Below are positions 15,501-57,214 of a stretch of DNA of 64,000 nt, piece by piece. This DNA is from Psammoneis japonica (lineage: Eukaryota). Made by a program: the position numbers and the translations under genes. Under the pieces are notes generated by a model. The model was not told the DNA's origin. It did no database searches and saw only the letters and a list, made by a program, of their open reading frames with translations. Where the stretch lies: contig QPGO01000107.1 in NCBI GenBank assembly GCA_008632985.1, forward strand, positions 186,001 through 250,000, given 5' to 3'. Position 1 is the first letter of the stretch; each line of letters opens with the position of its first letter.

Positions 15501-15693
15501 CCCAGCAGAGGGATTGCGACATGTTGACACATTTGTCAGCCCCATCTACCGGAATTCAAACATTTGAAGCTCACAGCAAAAAGCTTTTTGTTTGCTCTGC
15601 TGCAGTTTTCATTGCAACACATTCTGACCTGCCAAGAAGTTGAGGACTGCAAGGGAGTTCTTTTTCTCATTTCTCTGAGTTCTTTTGTCACAA

Positions 15694-21153: not shown

Positions 21154-21515
21154 CATTGGAGCATCTGGATGAGTGGGAAACATGAGAGACCCAAAAGTGT
21201 GTCTGTTGAAGTGAAGATGCTTTGGATCCTGAGTTGTGGTGGATTGGGTGACACCTGAAGAACAAATGTGCATTTGTCACTGATCTCACCAACCTTCTTT
21301 TTAGCTTGCTCTTTAGAGTGAATCATCTGGTTTGTGCAAAATGTGTTGTGGCACCAGTGTGCACCCTTTTGTTGCCTTTGCATTTGTGAGAACAAAATGA
21401 TTGAGAGCTTCCAGGCAAACCACAGCCACCACAGCAACCAGGACAAGTGCAACAAGCAGCACAGGAAACCTCAGAGGACTCCCTTTTGGTGACACATTGA
21501 CTTGTCAGTTCAGCA
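21154..21515 (+). repeat. 5' LTR of inner Copia
   Basis: Collinear with 28081-28443 over ~360 bp. Confidence 0.85.
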
Positions 21516-24500
21516 GTCACTCCAAAGAGTGAAGAGCACTGTGCTTGGTGCATGTGGCACTGACCTCCATTTAACCACTCAAAACAGCAAGCCTGCTTTG
21601 TGAGCAGTGAGGGAGGCAGACTTGGCACCAAAGGCTGAGATGGTTGCCAAGGCAGGGGCAGCATTGCTGCAACAAAAGAGCAAGAAGATGAACCCCTGAG
21701 AAGAGCTTCAAGCCAGAAATGAAGTTTCATCTGTCAACAATGAATGGCAACTTGCACAACATGATGTTCAAAGATGTCAAGGAAAAGGTCATTGACCACA
21801 TGCAGAAAGAGCACTGTCATGGCATCTGTCTGGCAAGGTCTCCAGAGAATGTGGGCTGTGTGGACTTCAATGCAGAGAGTTCCACACTGCAGACAGCCAC
21901 AACAGTTGTGCCAGCACCACCAGGCAATGTGGGCTGGCTGCCAACAAATGGTCAATGAAAGAGCTCAAGAAGAAAAACAACTTGAGCATGAGTGCAAGAT
22001 CTAACCACAAGATCACAATGACAAAGTGAAGAAGCTTGAAAAAAAAGACTGTGGCATTTGCAGGGATCACAGATGATTTCTCCAGCAAGCAAATGAAGCA
22101 AAGAGTGCAGGTGGAGCTGGTGCACATGAGTGTCAGGGATGACCTGATTGAGCCATTGAAGCTGATCCAATTGCTTGTGCTCAACTCTGTGAGAGGTCGA
22201 CACCCATTCCATGCACTTGCCAAGTGCCTGTTGCACACACTGGAAGTGAAACAACACAAGGACCAAAGAGACACCATTGGCAAAGGTCTTGGCAAGAAGA
22301 TGTTGGACAGATTCATCATGAATGCCAGCAAGGAGCACAAGGACTGCACCCACCCAGCAGAGAATACAGTGCTGACAGGCGCTGCATTTGAGACATGGAG
22401 CATGCATCCATTCACAGAGAACAGTGAGAACTGCCACTGCAAGAGTCTCAAGATGAGCCTTGTGAGAGACCACAGCCTGGGGAGGGATTTGCATCCTAAG
22501 ACCCTTGAGAAGGCAATGGATGTGCCACTGAATCATCCAAAAGACAACCCTCTGCACAAGAGGCAGAGCAAGAAGAAGAACAAACGTCCAAATGACAAGA
22601 CAGAGGACAAAAGGAATGACAGACCCAAGAACCTGCAAGACCAGAGTCATGCACAGAGCAGCAAAAATGATGCACCATTGTTGTGGTGAGCCAAACCACA
22701 ATTCCTCAGACTGCAGACACAAGGATGAGATCTCACAGAAGGGTTGGTTCAAGAAGACCAGCAGGAAGCCAGATGTCAGGGGACACAGTCATGCACAAAG
22801 AGATGAAGACAACTCATCAGTGAGCAGCAACAATGCCAGCATTGACGCCCAGAGGTCAAGTCGATCAGCAAGTTCTGGCAGAAAAAGCACTGTGTGGCAT
22901 GGGTTCCAAGCAGAGGAACAGGCTGAAGAGAGACTGGAGATGAGTTTGAGCCAAGCCAATGTTGGCATCAAGTCAGATGAGAGCATCCTTGACAATGGTT
23001 CTGCCCTTGGCATGGCAGCAAGCCGGAGTCTGGTGCACAATGTGCAGCCAGCAAGGACCAAGATTGATCTGTCCATGAATGCAGCAATGAACACTTTGGA
23101 CAAAGACTGAACCATGCCAGGATGGGGTGATGTAAAGCTTGGGTCATGCAATGTGACAGCAAACATCCTAAGTTTGAAGGATGTGAAAAGCAAGTGCTGC
23201 ATTGCACACGACAACAGGGCAGCAAAAATGAGCTCCATCTGCTGGACAAGAAGTCTGGCAAACAAGTTGTGGTGTTCAGAGTCAATGACATCAGACCACA
23301 CACATTTGCTCCAAGCCAGCAATTCCTCAACCATGCAAAAGAACTCCAAGAAGATGAGTTGCATGTGAGCATGCTGTCAAAGGAAAAGAAGGTTGCAAAA
23401 AAGACCAACAAGAAACACAATGGTGCATCGGGAACTGTGGTTCCAACTGTGAAACAGCATGTGAAAGGCTGCACCAAACAGGAGGCAGCAAGCACTGAGG
23501 ACATGATCAGACTGTGCTGCAAGGTGCTGGAATGCCCAGCGCAAGGGATTTCAAACTGTTTTTGTGGTCCAAGAACCTGTTCATCATTCCTGAAGACATG
23601 GACAGCATGGTGGCCACATTGGGGCCCACTGACCAATGCACTTGAAGGCAAGTCCAAGCATGTGCACCATTCCTGTGCAAGGAACAACAATGTTGTTGCA
23701 CTGCCACCTCAAATCTGCAAGAAGCAGAGAGAAGGCACGACCCTCTACATTGATGTTGTGGAAGTGTGTGGTGTCAAGACACTGCACACAGTTGACAAGA
23801 TGATCAAGTGCAGATTGAGTGTGCATGGCTGAGGTCCAAGAAGCATGAAGATGTTTGCAAAGCCTTGGACATGATTCTCAGACAGCACAACATGGTGTCA
23901 TTTGAGGTTGACTTTGTTGAATTCAAGGACATGCTGGCAGAAGTCGCGGATGGCATGAACCTGGAACTGACATCCATGAATGCCAAGGATCATGCTTCTG
24001 AAGTTGAGCAAAGCATCCAAACCATCAAGGAGCAAACCCGTGCTGCAGCAGCACACCATGTGTCACACAAGACTGTCAACAAGCTGATGTGCAAGCAAGC
24101 CATGATCAAGAACACTGTCATGTCCAACGCACATGTGCCCTCAAAAGGAAGGGATTTCTGACACTTGCAGTCCACACACTGTTGTGCAAGAAAGAAACCT
24201 TGACTGCAAAAAACATTTTCAGCTTGAATTTGGGGAACTTGTCATTTGTCACATTGAGAATGACAAGACAAATGCCATGGAAGTGCACGGCATTGACAGC
24301 AGCATCTGCCTGCAACCCCACTTTGACTTGCCCAAGGGTGGTCACTGCGCCATGAACCTGCACATGGGAAAGACATTGAGTCCCCACAAGTGCACCTCTG
24401 CACCTCTGATGGACGTGCACATTGTGGCCATCAAGGACATGGCCAAGAGTCAAGGCATCAAAGAGTTCAAGTTTGCAGCAAAATGCAGAGACAATCAGTG

Positions 24501-27500
24501 CAATGCTGATTGGACTGCAGGAGTGGACAACACCAAAACCAAAAGCAACAGCAACAGTGATGATGCTGATGAAAGTGATGATGAGCACTGTGCAACCAAG
24601 TCATAGAACAAAGACTGTGAAGACAAGCTCAACTCAGATGATGAGTGCAAGGAGGCCAGCAAGATGCTGGCCAACAAAAGGTCCAGTCTCAATCAACAGC
24701 ACAAAGCTCATGAGGAGCAAGAGGTCCAAGAAGACCCAGAAAACAATGATCACCATGCGAGTGAAGAGTCCAAGATGGACAAAGAACCCCAACACAATTC
24801 AAGATGGGAAAGTGAACGAACGGATGAAGAATCAAATGTTGTGCCAGGAAGAGTTGCAAGAGCAGGAACATTCTCCAACATGATGTCACAGAGACACAAA
24901 GAAAAGAAAGTTTGCTTTGCAGGAGTGGCAGACACTGGAAGGATGGCAAAGAAGCAATGCAAGCTCAAGCACTGCCATCACTTGCACACCAACATGAGCT
25001 CCAACCTGAAGGATGATCTGGAACATGAAGCAGAATTCATGTGTGAGATTGATGACTGACTCCACTGTGGAAAGGGCATGAGTTTTGCCCAACAACACAT
25101 CTGATCCACAAAGGCTCAAAAGCATTTGGCCAGAACAAGGGGCATGATGCCCCACAGAAAGAGATCAAACAATTGCATGACCAAGTGTGCTTTGCACCAG
25201 TGTCAGTCAAGGATGTGACTCCAACTGAGAGGACCAAGGTCATGGTGGCCTTTGTGTTCCTAACCAAGAAATGAGACAGTCGCACAAAAGGGCAAATGGT
25301 CTGCAATGGCAAACAGCCTTGAGAATGGCCAGACAAGGACAAGTGAGCCATGAGCCAGCCCTGCTGCATCCCTGGAAGGGATGTTTGTGACAGCAATGGT
25401 TGACACCACCCATGAAGGACATGACAAAATAAGCACCAATGTTCCCGGTGCATTTGTGCAGACTGTGATGCTGGAGCCTGGAGAAGGCAAAGACTGGATT
25501 GTGACAAAGATCACAGGAGCACTCATTGACATGCTTGTGAGCATCAATCCAAACCTGTGCAGACCTCATGTGTTTCTGGAAAAAGGCAAGAGAGTTCTTT
25601 GCGTCCAAGGCATTGGAGCCACATGTGGAATGCTTGTTGTGCTGTCTCTGCTGTGACACAACAAATTTCAAAAGGACTTGGAAAATGCAGGGTTTGAGTT
25701 CAACCCTTGCAATCCCTGCATTGCCAGTTGCACAGTCAATGGCAATCAGCACATGATTGGATTTCACAAGGATGACCCATTGTCTGGCCACAAGAATCCA
25801 AAAGGAAACAAGTTCCTGGACTGGCCAAATGACAGATGCATGGCAGCCATGGTGAAGTCATTTCCACACAAGGGAAGAGACATGACTGTCTTGGCATGAC
25901 CCTGAACATCAGCTCAGAAAGGAAAAGTAAAAGTCAACATGGCGGACTGTGTTCACAAGATGATTGACCAGTTTCCCAAAAATGATTGAGAGAGCATGGA
26001 TTCTGCTGTGACACCAGCTGGGGAGAAGATGTTTGACACTGGTGGAACAAGTTTGCCAGACAAGAAGGCACAGACCTTTCATGCATGGATGGCCAAGGGA
26101 CTGTTCCTGTCCAAAAGAGGCCAAATGGACATGCATCACACTGTCACTGCATCATGCACGTGAGTGAGAGCTCTTGCCAACAAGGATTGGTTGAAGCCAG
26201 TCTGTCATCTCGAGTGCCTGAACCGGACAAGAAACAAATGCAAAGGACCTCTGAGTTTTGTCAAGTGGCATGTGGACACATCATTTGCAGTGCACCCTTG
26301 TTTCAAGAGCCACACCAGAGGAGTCATGACAACAGGCAATGGAGCAGTGCAGGCCATCTTGAAGCACCAGAAGCTCAACACCCAAAGCAGCACACAAGCT
26401 GAGCTTGTTCAAGTCAACAATGCCATGACTGTGATGCTGACAAAGCTCTTCATGGAGCACCAAGGGCATCCAATTGACAAGAATGTCTCCTGAGCCAGGA
26501 CAACAAGAGTGCCATCCTGCTGGAAACTGACTGGTGGGTGCAAGAGTGTGGGGAAGTGATCACGGGCACTCAACATGCAGCATTTCTTTGTTGCCAATCA
26601 GATTGAAAAGGGCAACTTGTGAGCACAATGTTGTCCTGCCAACAACATGTTTGAAGACTTCATGACCAAGCCACCACAAGGCAAGAAGTTCTGAAAGTTT
26701 AAAAGAGCATCATGGGCTGTCAACTTCAAGCACAACAGGCATGAGACCCATTCTTTGTGACATCAGATGAGAATTCTCATGCATGTTGGTGACACGAACG
26801 TGGAGCAAGAAGAGCCCCAAAACCCTTGCACATTGATTGAGTCAAAGAAGAGTGACAATGGAGGGGAGATGCTTTGTGGAGGAATTTGTTGATGGACCTG
26901 ACTTGGTGCTGATCCAGGCAGTCAAGGACAGATGGCCCATTGATTGTTGGGCCTGGTTCTGTCTTTCAAGGCAGATGTCAGGACAGCCAATGACCAGGAC
27001 ACAAGAGCATGCTTGCTGTCTTGATGCAGCAATGTTGAGTTTCAATCTCATGAAAGATGAGCTCAAAACTTGGCTGATGAGCAACATGACAACCATGACC
27101 ATGGACCCATTTGAGAGGCAACATGCAGCCAATGCGTGTCAATTGAGGATTGACACAGATGAGAGGAACAGCAGAAACAGGCTGACAGAACCTGCAGAGG
27201 TTCAAAGTCTGATGTCAGTTTTGACAGAGACAAAGGCATTTTGCCATGACAGAATTGCAGGAGAGTGCATTGAGACATTGGACATGGGCTCAACTGAGGT
27301 GTGTGACCACTGGTGCACCAATGTTCTCCATGCACAATGACAAGAGCATCATGAACAAAGTGAAGTTGCTCAGAGAGAATGCACAAAAGAAGACCAGAGA
27401 GTGCTGGCAAGGTTTGCCTTTGATGTCATGATGCAAGGCAACACATGTTGTTGAAACTGCAACAAGGATGACAGAGCAGAGAGAGCTGCACCAGACCAAC

Positions 27501-28080
27501 ATGTTGCCAAAGAATCCCAGAACGGGAATCTCCAACTCACATTGGATGAGCAAGACATTCTTGTGCTGACAGACAAATCAAGAGTCAGCTCTCCTGCCTG
27601 TGGCATGGACGAACAAGTGGCATGTGGTCCACTTGGAATGCTCAGTTTGAAGTGCTCAGTTTGAAGGATGGTGAGTGCAGCAAGGTCTGCTGTGGACCAC
27701 TTCAAGACAAGAACAAGGCAAGGTCCCATGCCATGTGGACCTGCCAGAACATGGGATTCTTTTTGATGGATCCCAAAGTGGTCAACAGTTGGATCATGGA
27801 CCGGTTGGACAGTTCACATGAAAGAGACCCAGTGGAACAGAATTGCTGTGCCCACATTGCCAAGTTCATTGAATGTTCTCAAGATGTTGCCAGTGCATTC
27901 AATGGCATGTTGGATTTTGCTGACAAAGGACATCATGCCTGCTAGAGGTGTGCCAAAGTGCAAGACAATGGTGATGACCAAGTGGATTGGGCCAGCAAGT
28001 TTGTTGTGGAGACTCATGATGGAATTGCTGCAGCACATGAGGAAAAAGCATCCTGAACATTGATTGCAGTGACAGGACTG

Positions 28081-28443
28081 TGTTAGAGCATCTAGATGAG
28101 TGGGAAATGCGAGAGACCCAAAAGTGCATCTGATGAAGTGAAGATGCTTTGGATCCTGCATGGTGGATTTGGTGACACCTGGAGAATGAATGTGCACTCA
28201 TCACCCATCTCATCAACTTTCTTTTTAGCTCACTCTTTGGAGTGAATCATCTGGTTCACACAAGTTGTGTCACGACACCAGTGTGCACCCTTTTGTTGCC
28301 TTTGCACCACAAGAACAAAGTTGTTGAGAGCTTCTTCCAGGCGGGCAAACCACAGCTGCCACAGCAACCAGGACAAGTGCAGCGAGTGGCACAGGAAGCC
28401 TCAGAGGATTCCCCTTTGGCAACATTGACTTGTTGGTTCAACA
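28081..28443 (+). repeat. 3' LTR of inner Copia
   Basis: Runs TGTTAG...TTCAACA and is followed by the TSD AATGG. Confidence 0.85.
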
Positions 28444-31400
28444 AATGGCTCCCTCTGTTGCCTCATTGCCAACATCTTTCAAATGGGCAGCATGCAAGCT
28501 GGTGCACTGTCCATTGTCAGAATGGTCAACCATGTTGTCAAATGACATCATGAACACATTTCACAAAACACTCCATGAGGTTGCAATGAAGTCTCTCTTT
28601 CTCAATTTCACTGTCCTGATCTTAAACCAGGTCCACAATCCAACCATTGACTGTCTTGGGAGTCAAATGAAAGAACTCCATGTTGTTGCAGAACCACCTG
28701 TGTGAGGCACTTGCATGGTCAATGTCATGGTGGGAGAATGATGCTTGCTTCCTTGCATCACACATGGTGCCATCTGAGTCCCTTGTGAGTCCACAACAGC
28801 TCCTCACAATGTCATGATTGGGGCTTTCAATGAGCTTTGTGAGGGGACTGCACACCCCATTGTTGTCCATGCCATGGGTGGGGAAACTGACACTTGACTC
28901 CTCCCACAAGTTGTGAATGTCTCTTTCTTGCTCAGAGCCAAACTCAAATTGCAGCCTGATGATCTAGCAACATGCACATTTCTGATGTGCCCACTCTCAC
29001 CAGTTTGTCTCAGACAACACAGTTTGCTTTGCCTTGAGGCCAAGCTTCCAACAACTTGCCAATGTCTCTTGGTCTTGAGTGCTTCACCAGCTCATCATTT
29101 GGTCTCACAGACACATGCTCCCTTCCAGTTGTTGTGGATGGAGAGCATCAGCACAGCAGCAGACACATGCTCACACACTTTGGGGCTCAACTGTGCCATC
29201 TCTTTTTGTGTTTCCTTCCTTCATCACCTTGCACCCACCCAGCTGCAGGTGCAGGCCTTGCCACACGCCCGATGACTCTGCCTTCCCCCCCAATTGGAAA
29301 GTGCCTCCATGTCTGGATCTTTTTTCAGATCTGTGGCATCTTGGCAGAGATGTGGATCAAGAGTCAGCATCTTTTTCCCACTCTCATGCCATTTTGTCAT
29401 CTCTTCCATTGCTCTGTCACAATCTTCATCCATGGCTTCTTGCTTTCTTGGCCCACTCAAACCTGCAAGTCTCTCTTGATGCACAAGCCAGCAGTTTGAC
29501 AGCCACTGCCATGTTGTCAAGTCATGTGGCACAACAAAATTCATCATCATCGTTGCAGCTTGTGGTTGATGGTTGTTTTGAAAAACAAGTTGTGGTTGGT
29601 TCTTGAACTGCGTGGTGATTCATGGCCCTTTCTGGGTTGCAGGGATCTTTCACCCACACGTGTGTCAGAATTCTTGTCTGACATCTCAAAAAGGAAACGC
29701 TCCTGTCATGCTTGAAGTTGACAGCCCACAATGGCTTGTTTGATCTTTCAAGACTTCTGACCTTGCAGAGGCTTTGTCATGAAGTCTTCAAGCACGTCAT
29801 TGGCAGGACAGCTCTGCACTCTGAGAGCACCCCCTTCTCAATCTGATTGGCAACAAAGAAGTGTTGAACATTGAGTGCTCTGGACCACTTGCCCACTCCT
29901 GTGCCCATTAAATTCCAACAGCATGGTGTGCTTTTGTTGTCCTGATGCAGGATGTTCTTGTTGATCAGATGCCCCTGATGCTCCATGAACAACTTCATCA
30001 TTCACAGAGTTGCGGTCATTGGATCACATCAACTCCTGCAAGTTCAGCCTCTGTGCTGCTTTGGGTGTTGAGCTTCTGCCATTTCAACATGGCCTGCACT
30101 GCTCCATCACCCACGGTCACAATTCCTCCCATGTGGCTCTTAAAACTGAGGTGCACAGCAAATGATGCATTCACATGCCACTTGACAACTTGGAGGTCCT
30201 TCACGTTCAAAGCAGCAACTTTGTCTTGCACCCAGTTCAAGTGCTCAGACAATGGGCTGGCTTTCCTCAGTCCTTTTTGGCGGGCTCTCTGACTCATGTG
30301 CACAGTGCTGCCTTGCAACAGTGCGGCAGCCTCTTTTTGATGCAAACAGCCCCCCTTGGCACCCACACATGGAATGTCTGTGCTTTCTTGGTCAGCAATC
30401 CAGTGCTGCCAGTGTCAAATGTGTTCTCTCCAGCTGATGTCATGGCACCATCTGCACTTTTGATCTTTTCCAGGAACTGATTGATCATCTTGTGAGCTCA
30501 GTCAGTCACGTCAACCTTCACCCATTTTGGGACTGAAGTCCAGGGTCATGTGCTGTCAATGCCATGTGCACCCACAGTTTTCACTGGGTCATTCTCAACA
30601 TGAGAAAGCACAAATTCTCCAAACCTGAGCTGAAAGTGTTTGTCACAATCAAGGTTCCTTTGTTGCACAATGGTGTGTGGACTGCAATTGTCAGAAATCT
30701 CCTCTTTCTGTGAGCACCCATTCAACATGACAGTGTTTTTTTGCACTGTCTTTTGCATGCAGCAGCTCAACACCACATGCTTTCACAATGTCAACACAGA
30801 GGATCATTGCTTCTCTCTGCTCTTGTGTGTCTCAGAGGTGGTGTGGCCACAATGTCATTTCTCTCATGGAACAGTGTGCACACTTGGTCTTGCTTTTTAA
30901 TGCATCTGTCAGCAGACCCCAAATGTCCACCCTCCTTTCCATGCATTCAGGTTCAATGGACAAATTCTTGTTCACCTGGTTTGAATGTAAAAACAGCTTG
31001 AAATCCCTCACATGGGGCAACCCAGCCTTGCAGCACAGTCTGAGTGCTTGCTCAGCACTCGCCACCTCTCTTGGCGCAGCCTGTGGAGCTCTGTTCCACT
31101 GTTTGAACTGCAGCCAGAGATGCACTCCTGTGCTTCTTGCTTTGTCCAGGGTCTTTGGACAGGGTGTCCTTGCCCAGGCTCCAGGCTCCCACAAAAAACT
31201 CTTCTTTGAGCTCTTGAGGCAACAATTGTTGTTGTTCTCCATGAACAGAAATGTTGTTCATGAGTCAATTGCCACCTCTTGCAGCTCATTTTGAGCTGTT
31301 GCAATGCCTTCCTTGCACTCCTTTGCATTGGATGTAAATCCATCCAGCACTCTGTCTCCCAGACCTTTGCTTGCAGAGTGTCTTGTTGATTCTTGAATCT

Positions 31401-34099
31401 TGACAGACAGTCATTCAGCAACTTGTTCTCTTGCTGCTTCACTTCCAGCATGTTCTTCAGGGACTTGGCAAGTGCATGGAATGGATGCCACCCTCTCATT
31501 GAGTCAAATGCAAGGGATTGGATCAGCTTCAGGGACTTGGTCGGATCATTCCTGACACTTCTTGGGCAACTGGGATCACCTTGCACTTTCTGCCTCATTG
31601 GTTTGGCACAGCAGTCATCTGGGATCTTGGCAAATGCAGCAGTCTTGTTCTCTTCAAGCTTCTTCACCTTTTCATTGTGATCATGTGGCTTGGCCTTGCA
31701 CTGGTGCTCCAGGTCTTTTTCTTCTTGTTGCTTCTCTGTCAGCTTGGTTTGGAAGCCAGCATCTGACTTGTGGTTTTGCCATCATGGACAAACCCAATGT
31801 GGGTTTCTCAGAACCAAAGATCTTGCATTTCTCATGTCTTCCAATGATCTCTCCAAATGCATGCCTTGCTCACATTCCTTCTGCATGCAACAGATGATCT
31901 TTTCCTTGGCATCTTTGAATGTTGTGTTGTGAGCATTGCTGTTCAGTGATGAAGGATGGAACTTCATCTCAGGCTGAAAGCTCTTCTTCTGGCTGATCTT
32001 CTTCTTGCTTGTTGCAGGAAGACTTGTGACCTTTGTGACTTCTGCCTTGGTTGTGACCTCAGCCTCTGCCACTTGTTCCACCTCCTCCTCTGCACAATGA
32101 ACACAGTGCCAGTGACTTTTTGGAGTCAATTCAACATCGTTGAATCCAACAAGGCTTTCTGTGCTGTTCATTGCATTTGCCCTGGTTCCTTGTCATGGTG
32201 CCTGTGGGTTGCTTAGAAGTGGTGTCCACACAAACTTCAAACTTGCAACACAACAGGCACCTGGCGACACCAAATGCAAAATCATGCAGTCCAAATGATT
32301 CCCTCCAAAGAGTCGGACAAACTGAAAGGGGAGAGAGATCAGTGACCATGAGATCTTGATCACAAAGAGTCACCAAATCTGCCACACTAAAAGCAATGGC
32401 ATCTTTTCTTCAATGCACCTGGGTTTCTTGTGTTTCCTGTGATCTGTGTTCCATCATGAGATTGCAAACACACAGAAATCAACTGAGAAATGTTGTGCCA
32501 TGAGCCTTGTTGACACCAGCTGAAAGTGAGGAGGAGAGCAAGCTGTGGACTCCTGCACCATCTTTGTCAAAGTGCTGTGCCTGGTGAGGTTCCCTTGGCC
32601 ACACCTTCAAATGAATCAAGTTGGCATCCAAGCACACAGCCATTTGCTTTGTCTTGGAATGGCGCTCTGAGTGCAGCTCCTGGCAGTTTGAATGAGCTCT
32701 GTTCTGCAATTTCTTGAATGAGCTCTGTTCTGCAATGTCTTCAAGAAAGCAACACAACAACGAGCCACCCTGTTGGTGGCACAGAAGCAAAGGCATGCAT
32801 GGCATCATCCACATGGCTCAACAAAACAATGGGTGTGCAATGTTTCTACAGACCACTGCAGTGTCATGTCAGCTGAGATGGCAAACAGAAATGGATGTTG
32901 TGCCACGAGCCTTGACACCAACTCAAAGTGAGAAGGAGAGCAAGCTGCAGACTGCTGCACCATCCTTGTCAGAGTGTGCCTGGCACATGGTTCCCTTGAC
33001 CACACCTTCCAATGAATCAAGTTGGCATCCCAACACACAGCCATTGGCTTCATTTCCAGCATCAATGGAGGATTGTCATTGAGAGGCACACAAAAATCTG
33101 AGTGCAGCTCCTTCATGTGGGTCATGTGCCCAAAAACAAAATTCCAAATTTTCTCAAGTCAAAACTGTTCAGAATTTCATGAAAATCAATGCAAACCATG
33201 ACTTGCTCCTTTCTCTCCTTTGTGCAATGATCATGCCATGACACACCACTCTTCTCCTCCCATGTTCGCATTGGAGATTCGTGCAAGGAAGGCTGCTTGT
33301 GTGACCACTGGCATTTTTGTTGTTTTGCTGTGTGCTTTCAACCACTGGTTGCATGTGTTCCCCCCATTTTCTCACTTTTCTTGCTGTTGATGTGCTGTCC
33401 TCATTTGATGTTCAACAAGGCATCCCACAGGGACAATGCTGCACTTTACAGTCAATCTTGTGCCACAAAGGCAAGGTCTCTCTGTGTCATTTCATTCTCC
33501 TCACAGTGCAACTTGGATGCCGCCGTTGGAACTCTGCAATGACAAAGGCTGGCTGTGCTGGCAAGAGGAGCTCAGACACCAGTCCTCTGGAGAATGAGCC
33601 TGTCTGCTGCTCATGTGTTCAGCATGTGGAGCAATTTGTGCCACCTTCCCATGGTTTGGCTCCTTTTTTTGGTGGTTGATCTTTTGTTGGCAGTGGCTCT
33701 TTTTTGGGTGGTGTTGGTTCCTGTCAGCTGGGGAATCAGAATGCAATGCATCAAGGTGCTGCACCATTGCAGGCTGGCCCTGTCACAACACTGCACCTGT
33801 CTTTTGCAACCATCATGGTGGGGTTGTTGGCTTTGGTGGCACTCCCTGTTGTGGGCGGCACTTGTGGGGTTCCTGCATTGAGCGAGTGGTGTTCCTGGTG
33901 TTGTTTTTGGCATGGCTGCTTCAAAAGGTTGTTCCAACTGTGTTGGAGGTTTTTCCCAGGGTGACAACACTGCTTGCTTTGGTGGTGGTGGGTCCAAACT
34001 TGGTGATGCTGTTGATTCAGACCATGGTGGTGCCTCTGTTGGATTGGCCACAAGCACCGACAACTTTGCAATGTCTCACATGCAGTTGATGGACCAGAT

Positions 34100-35110
34100 G
34101 ATCTCTTTTCTTTTGTCAATGTCACTGAACTGGATGGCTTGGAGAATGTCAGCTGTTCTGGTTTGAGGGTTGCATGCACTGACCCTCTGCCTTTTCCAAT
34201 GGAAGACATCTCTTCACTGTCTGATTGCAAGGTGACTTGCTTTGGCCACACTTCCAGCAATGCGCAACAAAACAGCTGTGCCAAAGGAGCACATCAGCAC
34301 CTTCACCCGGTCCCTGCACAAAACCTTTGGTCCACATTTGGTCAGCAAACAAAATGTGGAGACTTTTGAACAGCCATTTTTTGTCCACAATTTCCTCCAT
34401 GGACTCAAAACCATGAAGCAATGAATGCTTGAAGTCCTCCTCAAGGCAAGCAAACACACTCAGCAATGGCGCGTGACCTCATCTCTCTGCATCTTTGTGG
34501 CGGGGCCAATGTGTGGCCAACTGGCCTTGTTGCACTGTTGTTTCTGTGCATCATGATGAACAACATCTCTGCATTGCTGAAGGTCTTGGTGCATCTCCAG
34601 CATCATGTGCAACAAAGCCTCCAGCTGACCAGTGTTGTTGCCCCGCTTTTCAGACAGAAATCAAACCGTTGGTTGCCCTCTTTCATCAACTCAAGAAAAT
34701 GAATTGCATCCCAAGTTGACAAGTCTGACTGCATGACCTGGTGAAGCATCTTGGACAAGTTCTTTCTTGTGATGGCAGAGTCGCCAAAGATGGGCTGATC
34801 CGCTGTGTTCTTGCAGCACCTCTTTGCCAGCTCCTGCTGGGCAAACCCAGCGGCGATGTGGCACTGAGTCTCGTCTGTGTTGACAAGCCAAACCTGGACA
34901 TGATGCTTGAAATTCTTGATGAAATTAGCATCCATGTCAGTGCACACTGGCGTGCACATCTGAGGCAAAGGTTGGCGATCCTTTGGCTCGACAGGTGGGT
35001 TCTTCCATTCTCCATTGTGGCGACAGCGGATTCTGTGGACAAGCAAGACTGGGTGGCACTGATGTCATCAATGAAGACTTCATTGCAAGGGGTGGTGCTG
35101 CTGGACATCA
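34100..35110 (-). pseudogene. Degenerate ORF, possibly a MULE-type transposase fragment
   Basis: Protein-like frames (LSTWDAIHFLELMKEGNQRFDFCLK; ECVCLLEED) loosely resemble the region before the MULE DDE domain. Catalytic residues are not securely identified. Confidence 0.3.
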
Positions 35111-35171
35111 TGAAGGGGGAATTAAAACAACAACAACAGCAGATGATGGTTCTTGTTGGATTGGAGTGCTG

Positions 35172-35538
35172 TGCAGTATGCGACTGTTATATGCATATCC
35201 ATAATTATATATTATTAATATGTCAATCGTACCACAGTCGTGGATGCGTACAAAGGACAGAACGATCACACAGAGTTGATCGGATGTCGAAAATTGTAAA
35301 TACGATCGATTGACGATGTTGACATCTTACGTGTCAACAGCAATCGTATCCGGACAATCTGTTGTCACGAATATATTCTCCGAAAGGCCTTTTGTCTGTA
35401 GAAGCAGTACAAAAGCTTTAGGCCATTGAGAAATCGTTCGGAGAAACCAAAAATCACAGAACAAAATTTGATCTTATAATTTTCACTTTTCGAACTTCGT
35501 TCTACTTTCGTTTACACTCGTTCTTCGAGCATAGTGCA
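35172..35538 (+). repeat. 5' LTR of Gypsy (TpA-rich copy)
   Basis: TGCAGTATGC...GCATAGTGCA near-inverted termini; ungapped match to 42881-43247. Confidence 0.95.
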
Positions 35539-38500
35539 TTGTGTATACACACCACAGAAGGTAAAAAGCACGGAAAATGAAAATTTTAACTAATGTGCCT
35601 TTGTAAATTCTTCTATAAACAGGGACGAATCGCATCAGTTCTGCTAGAAACGATTTCCGAGCGGAAGAAGCTCAATCCGAGCAGTACCTCAAGATGGAAC
35701 GCTGTTTTTCGTCTAGCAAATGACAAGATTCGTTCTAATACGATCCATTCCAAGTGTCTCAGGACCAAGGACTCTACAAGAGCACAGCATTATCGAAATA
35801 TCCACACCAAGTCATGGTTGGGTAGAATTTCAAGTCTTGAGTCGATCAGGTCCGAGAAATACGTCTGGTGTACAAGGAGAGACTATTGGAGAGTTTTTAG
35901 AGACCGAATCGACGAGCCTCGAGTCCAAAAGCAAGATGGAACCGTTGGAAAGTACCTCAAGAGTCTCTTATCTCATGTCTTTCCAAGAATTGCACTTCAG
36001 AATCAGAGTTATTATTTTCAAGACGATCTGAAGAAACCAGAGCTGCTTAACAGCAAGGAAGCCTCTGTTAGACCCAAGAGGTCAATGAAGAGAGTCTATA
36101 CGACCCTTCAATGGATTCTAAGTTGAATCTAGCGGGAAACCGAGTCGTGAGCTATTAGCTATCACTCGCACCGCAAGGATGGCAGCATCAGTCTACTGTC
36201 CAAAACAATCAACTATTGCAACTCATCCTTGATGAGCTGATTAAGTTTTGAGTTATCTAAAGGTCGTTCATGACGTCCGTGATGAAAAAACATATCAACT
36301 CAGGCTCTGATAGCGCAGTTGGTTCCGAAATAAAAAAGGTTCCAAATTTGGTTCCAAAAATGGTCTCCTATATGGTGCCAGAACAATCCAAAGTGAATGC
36401 AAGGTCTAATCTTTGAAAAAAGAATACCTGCATCACGGATTCAAGCTATTCTGAAAATGAACTAGTGAAAGAATGCCGTGGACACATTTAGCGTGATCCG
36501 AAACGGCGCCGTTCAAATGGCAATCGCACGTGGAGTCGCGATAACGAAAATGCCACTCGCAAAAAAAGAGTTGAACGTCATGATTGATCAGGCGGTTCAA
36601 AAAACACTCAAAGCGAGTTCCTCGAACAAAGAAAAAGAGCATAAGGGCAAAGAATTGGATTCTGATACCCTCAGTGAAGAAAATTACCAATTTGATCGGA
36701 TGATCCAGAGTGAATCCGAAGAACAATTTTGGTCCATTCACGAATTATATGCTTTACTGGACATTAGGAAGCCTAGAAAAAAGGCAGAAATAATTCATGC
36801 TAGTCCAGGAGTCATCATTCATATGAACACTTCCTTGGGAAAGGAGAGAAAAAAGCATCTACGTGTTCCTATCGATAACGGAACATCGTCACCATAATTT
36901 TGCGCAAATTCGTGCGAAAGTTGAGAACACAAGAATCCGCCACCAAAAACTTGGGAAACCAAGGGTGAGCTCTTTACGACTGATAGTAAACACCGAATTC
37001 AGTTTCTCACTATGCCAATTTAAAAGACATGCTATATTTTAACACAGTATATGTTGATAACACGAAATCTTCTTCAAGTTCATATGATGTGATCATGGGA
37101 CGCGACTTAATGTCCAGTCTTGTAATCACATTAGACTACGGAAATGAAGAAGTCAAATGGGAAGAAGCAATTACCCTATGAAGAATGTTCATACACTCTT
37201 CGATGCCGATGTTTTCAAGCTGAAAACCATCACATTGAAAAATGTGACGCCGTGAATAGAGTTAACAACGGAACCAATGGTCCTTGACTCACATTATCAC
37301 GCCATCGATCCTAATCAAGTGACAACTACGGCGATGCATCTGACCCAAATGAACACAACCAACTCAATCTTCTTCTTAAGAGGCCGAAATCTTTTTGAAA
37401 AGTTCCTCAGACGAATGTGTGGGAAGAACCAGTGGATCTCATCGTGGAAAATCTGACGCGATTCCACGATGCGTGAGAACCTTCTCCCATCACAGTCTTT
37501 GGAGGTGTCCAATCAAAAGGAGTTTGACCCATCATGAAAGATTGAAGTCTTAAAAATGAAATTGCTCTGAATCAGTCGCTCTGAGACTCATTGTCCAAAG
37601 AAAACAGGTCGAGTTTGACCGCACCCGACACTCAGAAGCTCAGCAAAAGGTTCACACACGTGGTGCATCCTTTACCCAATGTTCAGGAAATGCCATTGAA
37701 GCAAGAAAATTTCATGTGTGCAATCTATTTGACTCAAATGTGGAATGCCACCATGTCAAATGAAAAAAGCACACGTCGTGCTCACACGAAAATCATGCCG
37801 TGGGGAAAAAATGAGCACCACAGACTTCCAACGAGAAGCCACAGAGCCCCAGATGTTTTTGTGCAACACATGAGTGAAGTCATGGCAGGTTTGAAGTTGT
37901 CAGAACGACCACAAATGATTGTTCATGCCTGACAAAAAGTGACTTCAAAATGTCACCTGCACAAGTGACAGCTCAACACGGCATTCAAACGACTGGAACA
38001 GTCGCTTAGAAGGTCAACAACAAAAGTCCTTCACTGTTTGACTTGAAATGAACTGTCAAGACTTCCATGCGCAACGACATGCAATCGATTGCAAAGAAAA
38101 TGGAGGCGATTCAAGCAATCGCAACATGAGAAAAACGCAAAAAACACTGCGACATCTCGTCGTCACACGTTGCTGCTGTCGAGACATGTAGTCTCAACGA
38201 TCTCCTGTGCAATGCTGGGCAAATTCACCTCAACAAAGGTCAAACGGCAAAAGTGCAAGTACGGAATGAAAAGTCTCCGAAAATGTGGAGCGCATCAAAT
38301 CAAAAACTGTGTTGTCATCACACACGCATTTCAATGTCACACGTTGCAACAGAAAAAAGAACTTCTGTCCACAGTGAAAACACTTGTAAACTTCCGAAAC
38401 ACACTGTTTGGCCAACAGATTTGCATGTGTGCGGATCACAAGACACAACGGACAAAGTCACACGTTGGCGACTTACAACAGAAAACTTCAGTCCCGAATT

Positions 38501-39701
38501 AAAATGCAGCGAGGGCAAGGCGAACATCGTCGCGACAGACGCGATCAGCCGACTTACCACAGAAAATTGAATCCTGCGACAATGTCCTGCCGTTAAAACG
38601 GGGTGAAGACATTCCCTCCAAATTGTCAGACGCGACACATCATACGAACACTTTTCGTGGAGGCGAGCAAGATCGAAAAATGCTCATGTCACAAGGACAA
38701 AATCGCCTCATTTTAAAGGACAGTTAGAAAAAAAACTCTGTGATAGATTGGCACACGGTGTTACAGTGTCCACTTCACACTGGCAAAAGACAATCTCACA
38801 ACACCCGCACGGTTGCATTGTACAATGTGCGAGGCAAGACATTAAAATGTGCATCATGTCGACATACGAGATGTGCCAAAGATCTAGAAAAAGAAAAGAA
38901 AAATGGACATTTGTCCACTCAGTGCACGAAACCAGTGCCTTCGGAATGACAAAACAACACCGGCATGTCAGAAAGAAACGTCCAAATGATGATTAAAATC
39001 CAACTGACAGATGGTTGAAGCACAAAAAAAAATCCACAATGGAATTCATGACCATCACAGGATTGATTGTCAAGACGAAATGGTCACAACATCTTTGACC
39101 ATCGCCAATTGTTGCTTGTGAAACGTGGCAGTGCAGCAGAGCAACATGGCACACAGCAAGCCCGCCAAACTGCACGAAATCCACAAGCAAGCAAGTGAAC
39201 GCCAATTGAGTGCGCACATCAAGCACTGGGCAAAATGCCATGTACAATCGACACCATGAAAGAACAGCAGGACAATTGGTCCTTGTGTCCACATGAACAA
39301 AATGATGTCAGAGAGAATGCTGACACAATGCCACAGCACACTGTGTGAGACTGACTAAATAGAAAGGTCACCATTTGCCAATTTTGGGCCAAAAATTGAG
39401 TTTTTTGCTTTTGGCATTAGTGAAAACTAGAGCAAAAATGCTTTCAAACGATGTGTCGGTCATTTTGTGGGTCCGATTTCTTGAAAAATGGCACCAATCT
39501 TGGGGTTTCCATGGGATCGCATGCCGGACGCACGCACTCTTCAAAATGCACGTAAATTGCATGCCACGCACTTTGTCAGCCACGTAAGAAGCTGCTGTTG
39601 TTGCCGCTGGTGCACTTTTGGCAGCCATTTTTATTTTTTTCAGAAAATGGAACAGCACACCATTTTCCCGCAGCAGCAACTGTCTTTCGTCCACAATCGC
39701 A

Positions 39702-41994
39702 ATGGACGACGACGATGCCGGCAACAACCGGTCTGACTCAGTTGGCAGCCTGCATGCAAAGCTCAGAGTCAAGCCTCACCCTTCACGTGAGGATGCTCTT
39801 GAGATGTGCAAGGAATTTCTTCAAAATGCATTTGACAGCCCGAAGTGTGTGGATGTTCGGGGGCGGCCAACGAGGTGCGAATGTTTGCATGCTTTTCGGA
39901 CGCGGACAGAGTGGCTTCCCTGTGTTGCAAAGTTCATGTTGGATGAGGTGGCACACAAGAGCAGAGACGACAGGGAGAGCTGCATCCTGCAACAATGTCG
40001 GTCACACCAGTCCACGAAATTTCTTCCCGTTCCAGCTGCGGGCAAGCCACCGGGCTCCAACGTGTTGACATGCAAAAATGCTTTCAAGCACATTATGAAT
40101 GTACGTCAAAAAGCTGACAGAAGGGTGAAAGAGGTGATTCAATCAAACATGGCAACGTCGCATGGCAACAAGGGCAAACCATCAAATGCAAGAATGAAGG
40201 TGGACGTGGAAACGTCGTTGCACGTTTTTTTCAAAGACATGATGGAACTTGCTTCTCCTCGAGCCACAAGGTTTGTTCGACTAGAAGTCGGAACAGGGAC
40301 CAGGGATGATGATGAGGAGCTGCTGGAGCTCCCAACCCATTGGACGGCTCGCCGACTGTACGGCAAATGGGTTGGCGAACGAGGATGGAAAGCCAAGCTC
40401 AAGAATGACAAAGGGGTGATTGAATTGACACAAGCAGCAGAAGACGTGGAGCCGCAAAAGACAGTTGTTTTTGAAACTTTCCGTTCTTTCTGGAAGAGAA
40501 GCACCCAAAGCTAGTTCTTCCTAAAGCTAGGGAGGACATTTGTTCTGACTGCTTTGTGCTGTCGCACACTTTTCGTTGCTTCTCGTCGCCTCGTCCTTTG
40601 AACAGCAGTGACACTCCAGTGAATGGACATCTAAGGAGAGAGGAGGCAGTGGCAAAAGCTCAAATCCACATCCAACAGGCTGCTGCTCAGAGAGAACTGT
40701 TCAATTCTCTCACTGCCGAATGCCTTGAACAGGAACTTGTTGACGTGCTTGTTGGCGACTGTTCCGAAAACATGGACCTTCCACACCTTGGCAATGAGCA
40801 ATCAGGTGACACTCACTGCTTTTCTCCATTGAATGTAAATTGTTTTGGACTTGTCAACATGAAAGACAACTTGCTCCAAGCACACGTGTGCCACAAGGGC
40901 CAAGGTAAAAAAGGAGGCAACAACGTCGCATCACTCATCATGAAGCATCTAAAGGACAAAGGGCATTTGGAGGTTGATGATGATGGAACAGCAAAGCAAA
41001 TTCGAGCAAAGCTCACTGTTGTTGTGGACAACTGCTGGGTCAGAACAAGAACAGGATGGTTCTTCGGCTGGCCCTCTACTTGGTTGAGCGGGGATTCTGT
41101 CAAACCGCACAGTTTGTGTTTCTTGTAGTCGGGCACACAAAGAACCCTTGCGACCGGATGTGTGACATCTTGAAAAAGCCACACAGAGACTCCAATGTCT
41201 GTGCCTTCAAGCAAATGATGGAATTGTTGAATGAAAACGAGAACACCACCGCCGCCGCTGTGGACGAGGAAGACTTCCAAGACTGGGACAAGAAACTCGA
41301 TTCATTGTGTCGACGCTTCGCCCCCAGCACCATCCACAAGAGCCACATCTTTTCTGTGACAAAAGCCTCGCCAACTGACATGAAAATTCAGGTGTCTTGC
41401 CGGGAGGAGGATCAAGGTGAGACTGCCACAAGAGAATTCAAAAAGCCTGGGACCAACAGCAACAGAATGGAGCTCTTGCAGGCGGCACCCCAGGTCATTC
41501 CATTTCCTGGAATTCCCGACATCAAACAAACAGAGCTTGGGACAAAATGGAGGAAGCATGTTCCAGTGGAGTGTCAGGATGAGATTTGCCCCACACCACC
41601 ACAAGCAATGATCGACAGACACAACAAGTCAAAAGCAGACAAGGCCAAAAGGAGCAAAAAGACTGTTTCCAATTCAAGATCAGGACAATCTCCCACTGCC
41701 GCTGCTGCTGCTGCATCCACTCAACCCCCAGCTGTTCCTGCCACTCAACCACATTTTACAGCCCAGCAACCTGCAGCACCAGCTGCTGCTGCCGCCCCGC
41801 CGCCGCCGCATTTCGTCAACCCGAATTTCGTCAACCCGCATGGTCTGCAACAACAAATGCTTCTGATTGCGGCATTGCATCCAACTGCAGCTGCTGAAGC
41901 ACAACAGCACATGCAAACCCTTCACTCCACTCTTAACTGTTCTGCCATTGAGGAAATTTTGGCGCGTCCATGTGGTCCCCACTGGCACGGTTGA
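39702..41994 (+). pseudogene. DDD transposase (Sola-like), frameshifts near 40505 and 41040
   Basis: Motifs DCSENMDLPHLGNEQSGDTHCFSPLNV, KKGGNNVASL, VVDNC-(GQ)NKNRMV and FLVVGHTKNPCDRM. Expected Tyr positions read His or Cys. Confidence 0.8.
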
Positions 41995-42019
41995 TTGGTT
42001 GGAGCGATCACGTCGGCGG

Positions 42020-42512
42020 CACTGTCCATCTGAACAGAGTGCACGACAACAAAAATTTTAGACGACACCAAAAAGAAACACAACCATCACACTTGATGCA
42101 TTCACACCACCTTGTGTCCATGATGTTAATCATGTGACATTGACCCAGTGATGGTCGCTTCATTGATGCGGAGCACAGCCGAGTCACGTGGAAACCACAC
42201 AAAATCATCCAAGCAGAGTGCAGCAACAAGAATTTTAGACGACATCAAAAAACAAACACAACCATCACACTCGTCACATTCACACTGAGTTGTGTCCATG
42301 CTCTGCATCATGTGACATTGTTCCAGTGAGGGTCGATTCATGAATGTGGCCGAGTCGCAGAGAAACCACAAACATGCTGTCCATCTAAACAGAGTGTTGC
42401 AACAAGAATTTCAGACGACACCAAAAAACAAACACCACCAGCACACTCGACAGATTCGTGTTGCCTCATGTCAATGCTTTTAACCGTGTGACATTGTCCC
42501 AGTGACGGTCGC
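42020..42512 (+). repeat. ~177-bp subterminal tandem repeat, about 3 diverged units
   Basis: AGACGACA at ~42060, ~42237 and ~42413; GTGACATTG...CCAGTGA...GGTCG recurs in each unit. Confidence 0.8.
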
Positions 42513-42880
42513 TTTTTATGAACACAGCGGCATCTCCATGGTGCTGCTGCGGTTTGCGGTGCGCGTGATGGTTTTTTGCTTTTTTCTCAAAAGCAACCAT
42601 CACGTCTGTCTGTTTTCCATGGTTTCCTTTTTATTTAGTCAGTCTTAAATGTCTTTCGAGAGCATCGTGATTTGTCTCACGCTTCATGTGTGTGCACAAC
42701 GCTCTGTGTGCATGTGTGTGTGTTTGGAAATTGAAACGGTCCTGTGCTGGTCCATGTAAAACAACAACAGTCATTGCCAATGGCACAGTGCAGTTAACGT
42801 GGAGACATTGTTGACACTGTCAATGTCCGTCGAATCATTCCACTTAACGAACAACTCCAATGTGCAATTAGGGAGGCGAG

Positions 42881-43247
42881 TGCAGCACGCGACTGTTGTG
42901 TGCATGTCCACAATTGTGTGTTGTTAACGTGTCAATCGCACCACAGTCATGGATGCGCACAAAGGACAGAACGATCACACAGAGTTGATCGGATGTCGAA
43001 AATTGTAAATACGATCGATTGACGATGTTGACATCTTGCGTGTCAACAGCAATCGTGTCCGGACAATCTGTTGTCACGAGTGTGTTCTCCGAAAGGCCTT
43101 TTGTCTGTAGAAGCAGTGCAAAAGCTTCAGGCCATTGAGAAATCGTTCGGAGAAACCAAAAATCACAGAACAAAATTTGATCTTATAATTTTCACTTTTC
43201 GAACTTCGTTCTACTTTCGTTTACACTCGTTCTTCGAGCACAGTGCA
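42881..43247 (+). repeat. 3' LTR of Gypsy (TpA-eroded copy)
   Basis: Same length as the 5' LTR; 23 substitutions, no indels. Confidence 0.95.
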
Positions 43248-43608
43248 GCTGCGCAAGGCCGCGAGAAGAGGAAAAACTGTGAAGACAATGGCGCGGTGTT
43301 TGTCCTTAATGTGGGCGTTACAAAATGAGATTTTTCTTCAAGGATGAAGATTTTAAATTTGCAGGCCGGCGTTTCATCGACAATTAATATAGCTGACTAT
43401 CATATTTTTCCATTTTTATTAGGCGTTGAATATACCAATATTTAAAATTCTCGATTCAAATCCCAATGGCTCCCGCTTCCCGCCGAAAACCCGCCATCCC
43501 ATGATCAAAAAAATGCAAAAGCCATCGGCACTCATCAGTGTCGACGACTCGAACTCACCATAGCAGTGCACTCTGGACTCTTTCCGCTAGACACTCTTCC
43601 TCAAAACA

Positions 43609-56773: not shown

Positions 56774-57214
56774 GGTTTGATTTGGAATAAACTTTGTTGT
56801 CTGATTTCATAGAGCGGACAACGGAAGTTGTGACAGGTGACAGGTTGTGACAAAGAAAAGAGAGTGTGTTTCTGCGATGAGACCTCTTACCATGCGGTGA
56901 AGCGGAAGAAAGAGATTCCGACCGGGATTATCGCAGCACGGTACGAATGCACATTTGGTGATGCAAGAAGGGAATCTGGCTTTGCGGGTGTTCTGTTCAT
57001 GCCTCCCCTCCAGTTCTCATTCTTCAATAAATGTTGGTTTTGCGGGACTCACTCAACGGCCGCCAACGACTGAGACGACTCTACCGGCGCTGCTTGGGCA
57101 GAACTCGCCCTTTTCACCTCCAGTTCTCATTTTTCAGCAAGGAATGATGGTTTTGTGGGACCCACTCAATGGCCATCACTCTGACTCCACCTCTCTACAT
57201 GACTGGCTCTACCT

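Follow-up and report, generated by a model that had tools for sequence, protein, structure and literature searches.

We analyzed a window of 64,000 nucleotides from Psammoneis japonica (Eukaryota; NCBI GenBank assembly GCA_008632985.1, contig QPGO01000107.1, positions 186,001 to 250,000 of the forward strand), which carries an integrated retrotransposon bounded by two long terminal repeats (LTRs) and, directly to its left, a 26.7-kb zone from which the dinucleotide TpA has almost disappeared. Most probably, a host process acting on chromosomal DNA after integration erased TpA from the adjoining zone and from the last ≈6 kb of the element, at its 3′ end. The LTR pair would then amount to a built-in before-and-after experiment, recording TpA erasure that took place after integration, on both DNA strands, and in sharp-edged tracts of several kilobases. 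The features are listed in Table 1; all positions are those of the window.

The two LTRs share the start TGCAG and the end GTGCA and are framed by a 4-bp target-site duplication (TSD), a match that has a chance probability of 1/256. When they were compared without gaps, 23 differences were found, with no transversions and no insertions or deletions; given as 5′ LTR/3′ LTR, 14 were A/G, eight were T/C and one was G/A. The 5′ LTR had the A or T state at 22 of the 23 sites (one-sidedness p = 5.7 × 10−6), and 20 of these 22 were within a TpA of the 5′ LTR (P(≥20/22) = 4 × 10−11, given that 54 of its 228 A+T bases are in TpA). The two exceptions were LTR position 8, the T of an ATG, and position 200, the A of an AA. 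The 23rd difference, at position 68–69, was CG in the 5′ LTR vs CA in the 3′ LTR. The coordinates of the repeats, the shared GCTG and the counts of the differences by type, including the 20 TpA sites and the single CpG vs CpA site, are as given in the original prediction, and the example string quoted there matches LTR positions 30–51.

Seen from the TpA sites, the 5′ LTR contains 27 of them (observed/expected ratio, o/e, 0.76; CpG o/e 1.67), and 19 were altered in the 3′ LTR: 12 to TG, six to CA and one to CG. The 3′ LTR retains eight (o/e 0.27), all of which are also TpA in the 5′ LTR. The 22 changes were also tested by hand for runs along one strand, with no significant result. Given the LTR pair and its TSD, we infer that the changes arose after integration.

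Table 1. Positions in the window of the retrotransposon, its parts and the TpA-depleted regions.
Feature	Position	Strand	Basis
Target-site duplication, left copy, GCTG	35168..35171		Directly before 5′ LTR
5′ LTR, 367 bp, TG..CA ends; taken as the unmutated state	35172..35538	+	Pairwise comparison, composition
High-copy family interior	35539..39321	+	Contig depth; phmmer matches
Low-copy 3.5-kb insert (≈3–6 copies), missing from common family copies, TpA-depleted	39322..42854	+	Contig joint, depth
Polypurine tract AGGGAGGCGAG	42870..42880	+	Read from sequence; putative function from position just before 3′ LTR
3′ LTR, 367 bp	42881..43247	+	Pairwise comparison, composition
Target-site duplication, right copy, GCTG	43248..43251		Directly after 3′ LTR
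TpA-depleted tract within element, ≈6 kb	37200..43247		Composition, RTAY counts
End-state zone, 26.7 kb, up to the insertion site; degenerate repeats	8490..35171		Dinucleotide composition
Sub-zone, TpA o/e 0.10, CpG mostly retained (0.68)	15500..19000		Composition
Small second zone, 1.4 kb; TA o/e 0.04, CG 0.23, CA/TG 1.8	57100..58450		Composition

TpA loss and its sequence context

The zone to the left of the element contained 83 TpA vs 967 expected (≈91% lost) and 283 CpG vs 1596 expected (82% lost). Its o/e values were 0.03–0.05 for TA, ≈0.1 for CG and ≈1.9 for CA and for TG, with the GC content unchanged at 0.48, while the genic parts of the window had values of 0.54 for TA, 1.0 for CG, 1.10 for CA and 1.15 for TG. 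A sliding scan of the zone gave a TpA/ApT ratio of 0.00–0.18 and a (CpA+TpG)/(ApC+GpT) ratio of ≈2. The sequence is complex and does not consist of simple repeats, and it is depleted uniformly, including between the repeat units. The final two TpA before the element are at 34926 (TTAG) and 35123 (TTAA).

Within the element, the picture changes at a sharp boundary. The 5′ LTR and the 2 kb that come after it, to ≈37200, had o/e values of 0.55–0.76 for TA and 1.0–1.25 for CA/TG, as in the genic background, whereas the tract that follows had 0.14–0.27 for TA, 1.4–1.9 for CA/TG and 0.67–1.3 for CG. The left edge of this tract is between 37191 and ≈37300. The right edge, between 43241 and 43307, coincides with the element's own end; from its first TpA, at 43307, the right flank is normal. 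Counts of the tetranucleotide RTAY (R, purine; Y, pyrimidine) followed the same division, with 33 in 35176–37191 and then only eight up to 43247; there was one in 10001–34000, vs 14–32 per 2 kb in the genic parts. The effect is regional, the zones at 8490–35171, 37200–43247 and 57100–58450 having a TA o/e of 0.03–0.27, vs 0.54 in the neighboring genic parts. The original prediction had described the changes as confined to one LTR. This holds in that 22 of the 23 changes are one-sided, but it is too narrow, since the 3′ LTR is only the end of a ≈6-kb tract and TpA has also been almost erased from a further 26.7 kb adjoining the element. LTR position 250 was considered as an alternative right edge for the tract and rejected: the difference between mixed-context sites (5/7 vs 1/5) was not significant after context was taken into account, and there is no RTAY beyond position 236.

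We then modeled TpA loss by comparing the surviving TpA with the genic background, such that the A of either strand could be the target. The fitted loss exponents for T-A-N in the old zones were 2.83 for T, 1.90 for C, 0.92 for G and 0.28 for A (likelihood ratio, LR, 111.7, 3 df), and in the element tract, 1.92 for T, 0.92 for C, 0.46 for G and −0.25 for A (LR 54.2, 3 df). In the LTR pair, 12 of 13 RTAY sites had changed vs seven of 14 other TpA (Fisher p = 0.033), and at the changed sites of mixed context, the A before a pyrimidine was the changed base in six out of six cases (p = 0.031). The zones and the LTR pair obey one extended rule, in which T-A-Y ranks far above T-A-R.

Loss of CpG accompanies that of TpA over slightly different domains, the CpG depletion being nested within the TpA depletion and starting 300–400 bp inside both edges of the TA-free zone. 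At these edges, TpA stops at ≈8470 and resumes at 35172; CpG is moderate to ≈8830 and is back from ≈34780. TpA loss was also ahead of CpG loss, with TA at 0.10–0.27 and CG at 0.67–1.3 in the element tract and the sub-zone at 15500–19000, and both near zero in the old zones.

Direction of the change, mechanism and alternatives

The TA-free state can be reached only by loss, and a process that removes TpA must therefore operate in this genome. Nowhere in the window did we find a TA-enriched composition of the kind produced by repeat-induced point mutation (RIP); TpA/ApT never exceeded 1.0. Ten paralogous pairs inside the zones differed by 817 transitions vs 345 transversions and had a CA/TG double mismatch 173 times, with no other double type occurring more than 18 times. 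Because a single change leads to either CA or TG from TA or CG, while two are needed between CA and TG, the ancestor of such swaps was TA or CG, resolved independently in the two paralogues. All 34 of the differences listed between the low-copy insert and other copies of it were transitions. In ten of these, the window had CA or TG where the other copy had TA, and the converse was not observed; 11 were CA/TG vs CG, ten rows made up five CA/TG swaps, two had AG in the window vs AA, and one had CG in the window vs TG. Finally, 77 metagenomic loci from the same reverse transcriptase (RT) clade had a TA o/e of 0.43–1.04, with none below 0.43. Since the 5′ LTR region matches both the genes and these 77 loci, while the 3′ tract falls outside both ranges, the 5′ region would represent the original composition. 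Very probably, then, TpA was changed to TpG or CpA in the 3′ LTR, within the chromosome; the direction comes from indirect evidence, and every indirect test that we ran favored the A/T to G/C direction of the original prediction.

Several points weigh against this reading. The direction at the 23 LTR sites was assigned indirectly: a 26-nt LTR pattern had no matches in public viral contigs and none in metagenome contigs, no third LTR copy was found within the 64-kb window by self-BLAST, and a purine/pyrimidine-coded BLAST gave only noise. Read in reverse, the LTR pair shows a clean, RIP-like C to T spectrum, with 18 changes at CpA, three at CpG and one at CpT. Three changes are off-motif, namely TpG to CpG at position 8, ApA to ApG at position 200, and the double change of TA to CG at 48–49, whereas the comparable hypermutation in the alga Bigelowiella natans was reported at TpA only, according to the main text of a recent preprint (Mettrop et al., bioRxiv 10.64898/2026.01.13.699255, April 2026). 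Codon polarization of the RT remnant of the window against distant intact RTs was weak: out of 90 differing columns, five fit a TA ancestor, two a CG ancestor, none the RIP direction, and 83 none of these. This reading does not account for the sparing of the element's first 2 kb, which lies between two mutated domains. Lastly, sequence alone cannot separate "A followed by Y" from "T preceded by R".

In the mechanism that we favor, the LTRs of the retrotransposon would have been identical when it integrated and generated the GCTG duplication. TpA would then have been turned by a host process into TpG or, on the other strand, CpA, over ≈37.2–43.25 kb, including the 3′ LTR, while the 5′ LTR and the element's first 2 kb stayed untouched. 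Carried near completion, and with CpG being lost more slowly alongside, the same process would have produced the TA-free, CG-free 26.7-kb zone next to the element. The activity would most likely be that of an ADAT/TadA-type deaminase acting on the adenine in 5′-T-A-Y-3′ on either DNA strand, converting A to inosine, which is read as G. In the anticodon loop of tRNAs, the tRNA-adenosine deaminases edit the A after U33; for the bacterial enzyme, the natural site is U-A-C-G. This would fit a T-A-Y preference. We give adenine deamination of this type, which is also what the B. natans preprint proposes, about an even chance of being the chemistry involved. Targeting would proceed by domain, at silenced or foreign DNA. 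Its limits are not fixed by repeat homology alone, since the tract covers the low-copy insert and ends inside the high-copy part of the element. The CpG erosion is probably a separate and slower consequence of silencing, likely through methylation, because TpA loss runs ahead of it and CpG depletion begins inside the zone edges.

The alternative that survives best keeps the direction and the chromosomal setting, and differs in chemistry: error-prone repair at WA motifs (W, A or T), or a modified thymine in R-T-A that mispairs with G. Both have precedents, in the Pol eta-like synthesis at WA motifs during the A:T phase of immunoglobulin hypermutation and in bases of the hydroxymethyl-uracil type, respectively. 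CpG and TpA have been lost from nearly the same domains, as if repair of deaminated 5-methylcytosine had recruited an error-prone polymerase, and which base of the T:A pair is attacked cannot be read from the sequence. However, ApA is not depleted (o/e 1.12–1.21 in the zones), and only one of the 22 changes was at ApA, whereas many would be expected under a WA rule. The LTR pair has no transversions, and TpA loss precedes CpG loss in the young tracts (CG 0.67–1.3 in the element and 0.68 in 15500–19000). We consider this explanation unlikely overall.

Less likely still, and in our view doubtful, is that the 5′ 2 kb of the element was replaced, either by gene conversion from a young, unmutated copy of the family or in a chimeric assembly, so that an old and fully hypermutated insertion received a fresh 5′ end, with the 3′ state still due to TpA loss. 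The family has very many copies (100–300), the boundary near 37.2 kb is sharp, and the fresh part ends exactly at the end of homology. None of the contigs listed linked the right flank to the 3′ LTR in its mutated part. On the other hand, the TSD matches on both sides of the element. A contig of run X1 (possibly from the same sample), built by an independent assembler, covered 34000–35247 with no differences, so that the left flank, which is TA-free, is joined to the TA-rich beginning of the 5′ LTR, up to 35247; a second contig covered 43221–44500 with one difference. The lack of transversions among the 23 LTR differences compares with 17% transversions among the listed variable places of the family (P = 0.013, a rough value), and since there are no transversions, insertions or deletions between the LTRs, the 3′ LTR would be the mutated sister of this 5′ LTR and not another copy. 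A conversion tract would also have to reach to within 5 bp of the end of homology. Replacement by conversion or chimera would explain the spared 2 kb, and the direction and chromosomal nature of the process would still stand.

We regard as improbable the converse reading, that the 3′ LTR is ancestral and that RIP-like C to T changes took place at CpA in the 5′ LTR and the first 2 kb. The reversed spectrum of the LTR pair resembles fungal RIP in its preference for CpA, and two of the off-motif changes, those at positions 8 and 48–49, would become ordinary CpG transitions. RIP is recognized by TpA/ApT >0.89 and (CpA+TpG)/(ApC+GpT) <1.03, while the 5′ part of the element had gene-like values of 0.47–0.72 and 1.18–1.36, respectively. 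The converse reading requires a founder with a TA o/e of 0.14–0.27, which was seen in none of the 77 related loci, and a second process that exactly reversed the TpA loss found in 28 kb of the window; it is disfavored because this process would need to create TpA with the same T-A-Y hierarchy as the loss next door. The old repeats in the window end up TA-free rather than TA-rich. The extent of RIP is set by homology and both copies are hit, whereas here 22 of the 23 changes are in one LTR and the tract covers a low-copy insert.

Both LTRs of a retrotransposon are copied from one template. Although ADAR-type enzymes favor a U before the edited A (10.64898/2026.01.13.699255, main text) and TpA loss is stronger towards the 3′ end of the element, we attach almost no weight to editing before integration, whether of RNA by an ADAR-type enzyme or of cDNA by deamination during reverse transcription: RNA edits would show in both LTRs, editing of single-stranded minus-strand cDNA predicts changes on one strand instead of 14 A/G and eight T/C, and the same signature is present in non-LTR flanking DNA and between chromosomal paralogues. 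As the original prediction had argued, the changes are not those of reverse transcription errors or RNA editing, but of a context-specific process on integrated DNA, affecting both strands.

Coding consequences and identity of the element

Changing TpA to TpG or CpA makes no stop codon, as TAA becomes TGA and TAG becomes TGG. It removes every tyrosine codon (TAY to CAY or TGY), and hence breaks the YxDD box of reverse transcriptase. In the part of the zone from 20000 to 35000, each frame contained 124–179 TGA vs 3–10 TAA or TAG stops. The zones hold many open reading frames (ORFs) of 150–280 amino acids, in all frames, and ORFs in depleted DNA have 0–1.3% tyrosine, with histidine and cysteine raised in the fully depleted ones. 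None of the 126 ORFs of at least 95 amino acids in the zone at 8490–35171 matched a Pfam family. The sub-zone at 15500–19000 contains ORFs of 627 amino acids (16479–18359, minus strand, three tyrosines) and 299 amino acids (15697–16593, minus strand). The former had no Pfam family, and a search of Atlas gave only unnamed clusters (scores 0.94–0.95, with recognition below the tool's mark). It may be a younger inserted gene whose frame was preserved since the process makes no stop codons.

The element itself was hard to identify. No Pfam match to RT, RNase H, integrase or protease was found in its ORFs or in six read-through frames, and a search of the three forward frames of 35539–39321 at E-values up to 10 gave nothing relevant. 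Searching a library of 1.84 billion proteins by phmmer with the read-through frame of 35722–39321 yielded 26 matches, with E-values from 9 × 10−10 to 1 × 10−3. These matches revealed, in order, a protease remnant at ≈36559–37078 and an RT remnant at ≈37594–38058, both interrupted by stop codons. When 16 of the 26 matched proteins were analyzed with Pfam, RVT_1 was found in 12 and RT_RNaseH in several; two had an integrase after the RT (Integrase_H2C2, rve) and two had a retropepsin-type domain (RVP) before it. This domain order in the matched relatives is that of Ty3/gypsy elements. RNase H and integrase were not detectable in the copy studied here, which has the low-copy insert at that place. 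No homologous proteins were found for the RT stretch or for the ORF at 35590–36123 in the similar-length range searched, nor by phmmer against the PDB. Of the traits of Ty3/gypsy LTR elements, it has direct LTRs that begin with TG and end with CA, a short TSD, and a polypurine tract before the 3′ LTR. Together, these similarities weakly suggest a degraded, Ty3/gypsy-like element with a foreign insert. The name "Gypsy" given to the element in the original prediction thus draws weak support from the protease and RT remnants and the Ty3/gypsy-type polyproteins that they match, and none from Pfam.

The contig depth in one public run suggests a copy number in the hundreds (≈100–300) for the family. 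Depth was 6,600–24,800 for the LTRs and 35755–39264, and 6,600–12,700 for the interior at 35539–39321, compared with 66–115 for the unique flanks and only 217–970 for 39265–42774. One contig connected 39321 directly to 42855, bypassing the insert. The insert contains a DUF7869 ORF at 40984–41991 (Pfam E-value 6.8 × 10−12), and the only Atlas clusters that it matched (best score 0.87) were likewise those of DUF7869. The coding region of this protein is split across three frames, at 39588–40511, 40475–41125 and 40984–41991; the insert could have originated as a DNA transposon, a captured gene or a rare subfamily. It also includes a 178-bp tandem array at 42020–42457, with 2.5 units at 76% identity (Tandem Repeats Finder). 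These units were rejected as a means of polarizing the changes, being too old and rich in transversions, with three, four and two CA/TG swaps per pair.

Two further observations concern the LTR and its surroundings. At position 35433, all 32 of the family contigs aligned there have C, and at 35461, all 25 have G, while this element has A at both positions in both LTRs. The two A's, of which 35461 is LTR position 290, are private variants of the lineage of this insertion. The bases following the 5′ LTR, 35539–35561 (TTGTGTATACACACCACAG...), lack the usual TGG start of a tRNA primer-binding site.

Loss of tyrosine was also seen in proteins related to the element. Of the 26 RT proteins matched by phmmer, four had less than 1% tyrosine, and several had histidine or cysteine within the motifs GYYHI, GKYEY and YIDD. 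One of them, a 699-aa RT–RNase H ORF (P0011), had no tyrosine at all; at 16 columns where intact relatives have tyrosine, it had histidine eight times, cysteine four times, phenylalanine three times and lysine once. Polarized by deep conservation, this pattern is that of TAY changing to CAY or TGY, which is the direction favored for the LTR pair. The gypsy-type RT ORFs P0011, P0013, P0015 and P0018, which have 0–0.7% tyrosine and histidine or cysteine at conserved tyrosine positions, come from public metagenome-type contigs (NCBI, JGI/IMG, ENA). From these tyrosine-poor proteins, it seems that the same TpA erasure is recorded in environmental sequence.

Of the neighboring genes, an uninterrupted ORF of 2061 amino acids (43591–49776, plus strand), 340 bp to the right of the element, had no Pfam family. 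It includes a tandem repeat at 44751–45329, with copies 87–89% identical, and has a normal TpA and tyrosine content. A triosephosphate isomerase gene at 4830–5894 (plus strand) is closest to bacterial-type enzymes (best PDB match 4y96, E-value 3 × 10−64). The predicted protein has an N-terminal extension of ≈28 amino acids and an unmatched in-frame stretch of ≈30 amino acids (residues 98–127), which may be a short intron.

Significance and comparison with known systems

The process described here has practical consequences for the analysis of such genomes. As the original prediction had anticipated, dating by LTR divergence is inflated: once the 20 differences of the TpA type are set aside, three of the 23 remain, an inflation of at least ≈8-fold in this element. 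Were the mutation rates of the B. natans preprint to apply, it could amount to orders of magnitude. LTR dates from such genomes are unreliable. Annotation based on homology fails, as with the RT missed by Pfam and the zone ORFs without a family, and TA-free DNA produces long, spurious ORFs in all frames. In its end state, the DNA has no tyrosine codons and no TAA or TAG stops. The hierarchy of T-A-Y over T-A-R narrows the search for the enzyme, and a mechanism must account for this hierarchy, for the lead of TpA loss over CpG loss and for the end state. We tentatively propose, while recognizing that the odds are somewhat against so broad a claim, a general, RIP-like but adenine-directed genome defense with 5′-T-A-Y-3′ specificity, extending beyond the one alga reported, which would act in situ on retrotransposons and viral inserts, domain by domain, and lead with slower CpG erosion to a TA-free, CG-free and tyrosine-free end state. 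If this were true, LTR pairs would offer a genome-wide, self-calibrating readout of its rate, tract length and targeting.

The old zones resemble DNA that has undergone methyl-CpG decay in their CpG o/e of ≈0.1 and their gain of TpG and CpA. Such decay cannot remove TpA, however, and here the loss of CpG lags behind that of TpA. The deaminase-type transitions clustered in retroelement copies recall the animal APOBEC and ADAR enzymes, the latter of which prefer a U before the edited A. Those enzymes act on cDNA or RNA before integration, affecting one strand or both LTRs alike, unlike the changes described here, which are on both strands, in one LTR only, and also in DNA outside retroelements. 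Fungal RIP is similar in being restricted to transitions, specific for a dinucleotide, active on both strands and directed at integrated repeats, degrading transposons in the chromosome. It differs in that RIP makes TpA from CpA or TpG and creates stop codons, whereas here TpA is destroyed and no stop arises. Moreover, whole domains are affected in P. japonica, low-copy sequence among them, while a repeat is hit only in part, and the composition falls outside the RIP indices.

The closest parallel is in B. natans, where the signature of TpA changing to TpG or CpA is already known, from one 2026 preprint among the full-text literature searched. Our comparison relates to the main text of that preprint. 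In a mutation accumulation experiment, 231 of 302 nuclear point mutations were in integrated giant-virus and virophage regions, arising at ≈6 × 10−7 per site per generation; almost all were A to G or T to C, and those were all on TpA (Mettrop et al., 10.64898/2026.01.13.699255). Genome-wide, the same authors described clusters depleted in TpA and enriched in CpA + TpG, and a set of low-TpA genes enriched for RT and DDE domains, and they proposed that an ADAT2-type adenosine deaminase acts on DNA. Given the direction favored here, the two systems share the almost exclusive change of A to G or T to C at TpA, its confinement to foreign-DNA regions with normal flanks, and a long-term mark of TpA depletion and CpA + TpG enrichment in clusters. 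The frequencies are also similar: the window background had TA at 0.036 and CA + TG at 0.142, vs B. natans coding sequence means of 0.041 and 0.137, and the zone had TA at 0.003, vs 0.0018 in the low-TpA set of B. natans. The words "LTR", "retrotransposon", "CpG", "trinucleotide" and "tetranucleotide" do not occur in the main text of the preprint. Whereas the direct evidence in B. natans comes from giant-virus and virophage inserts, the target here is an LTR retrotransposon that carries its own means of dating, the LTR pair, which would make retrotransposons a new class of target in addition to viral inserts. Compared with that report, the P. japonica window adds the T-A-Y rule, a near-complete end state extending over 27 kb, the lagging erosion of CpG, and a boundary inside a single element.

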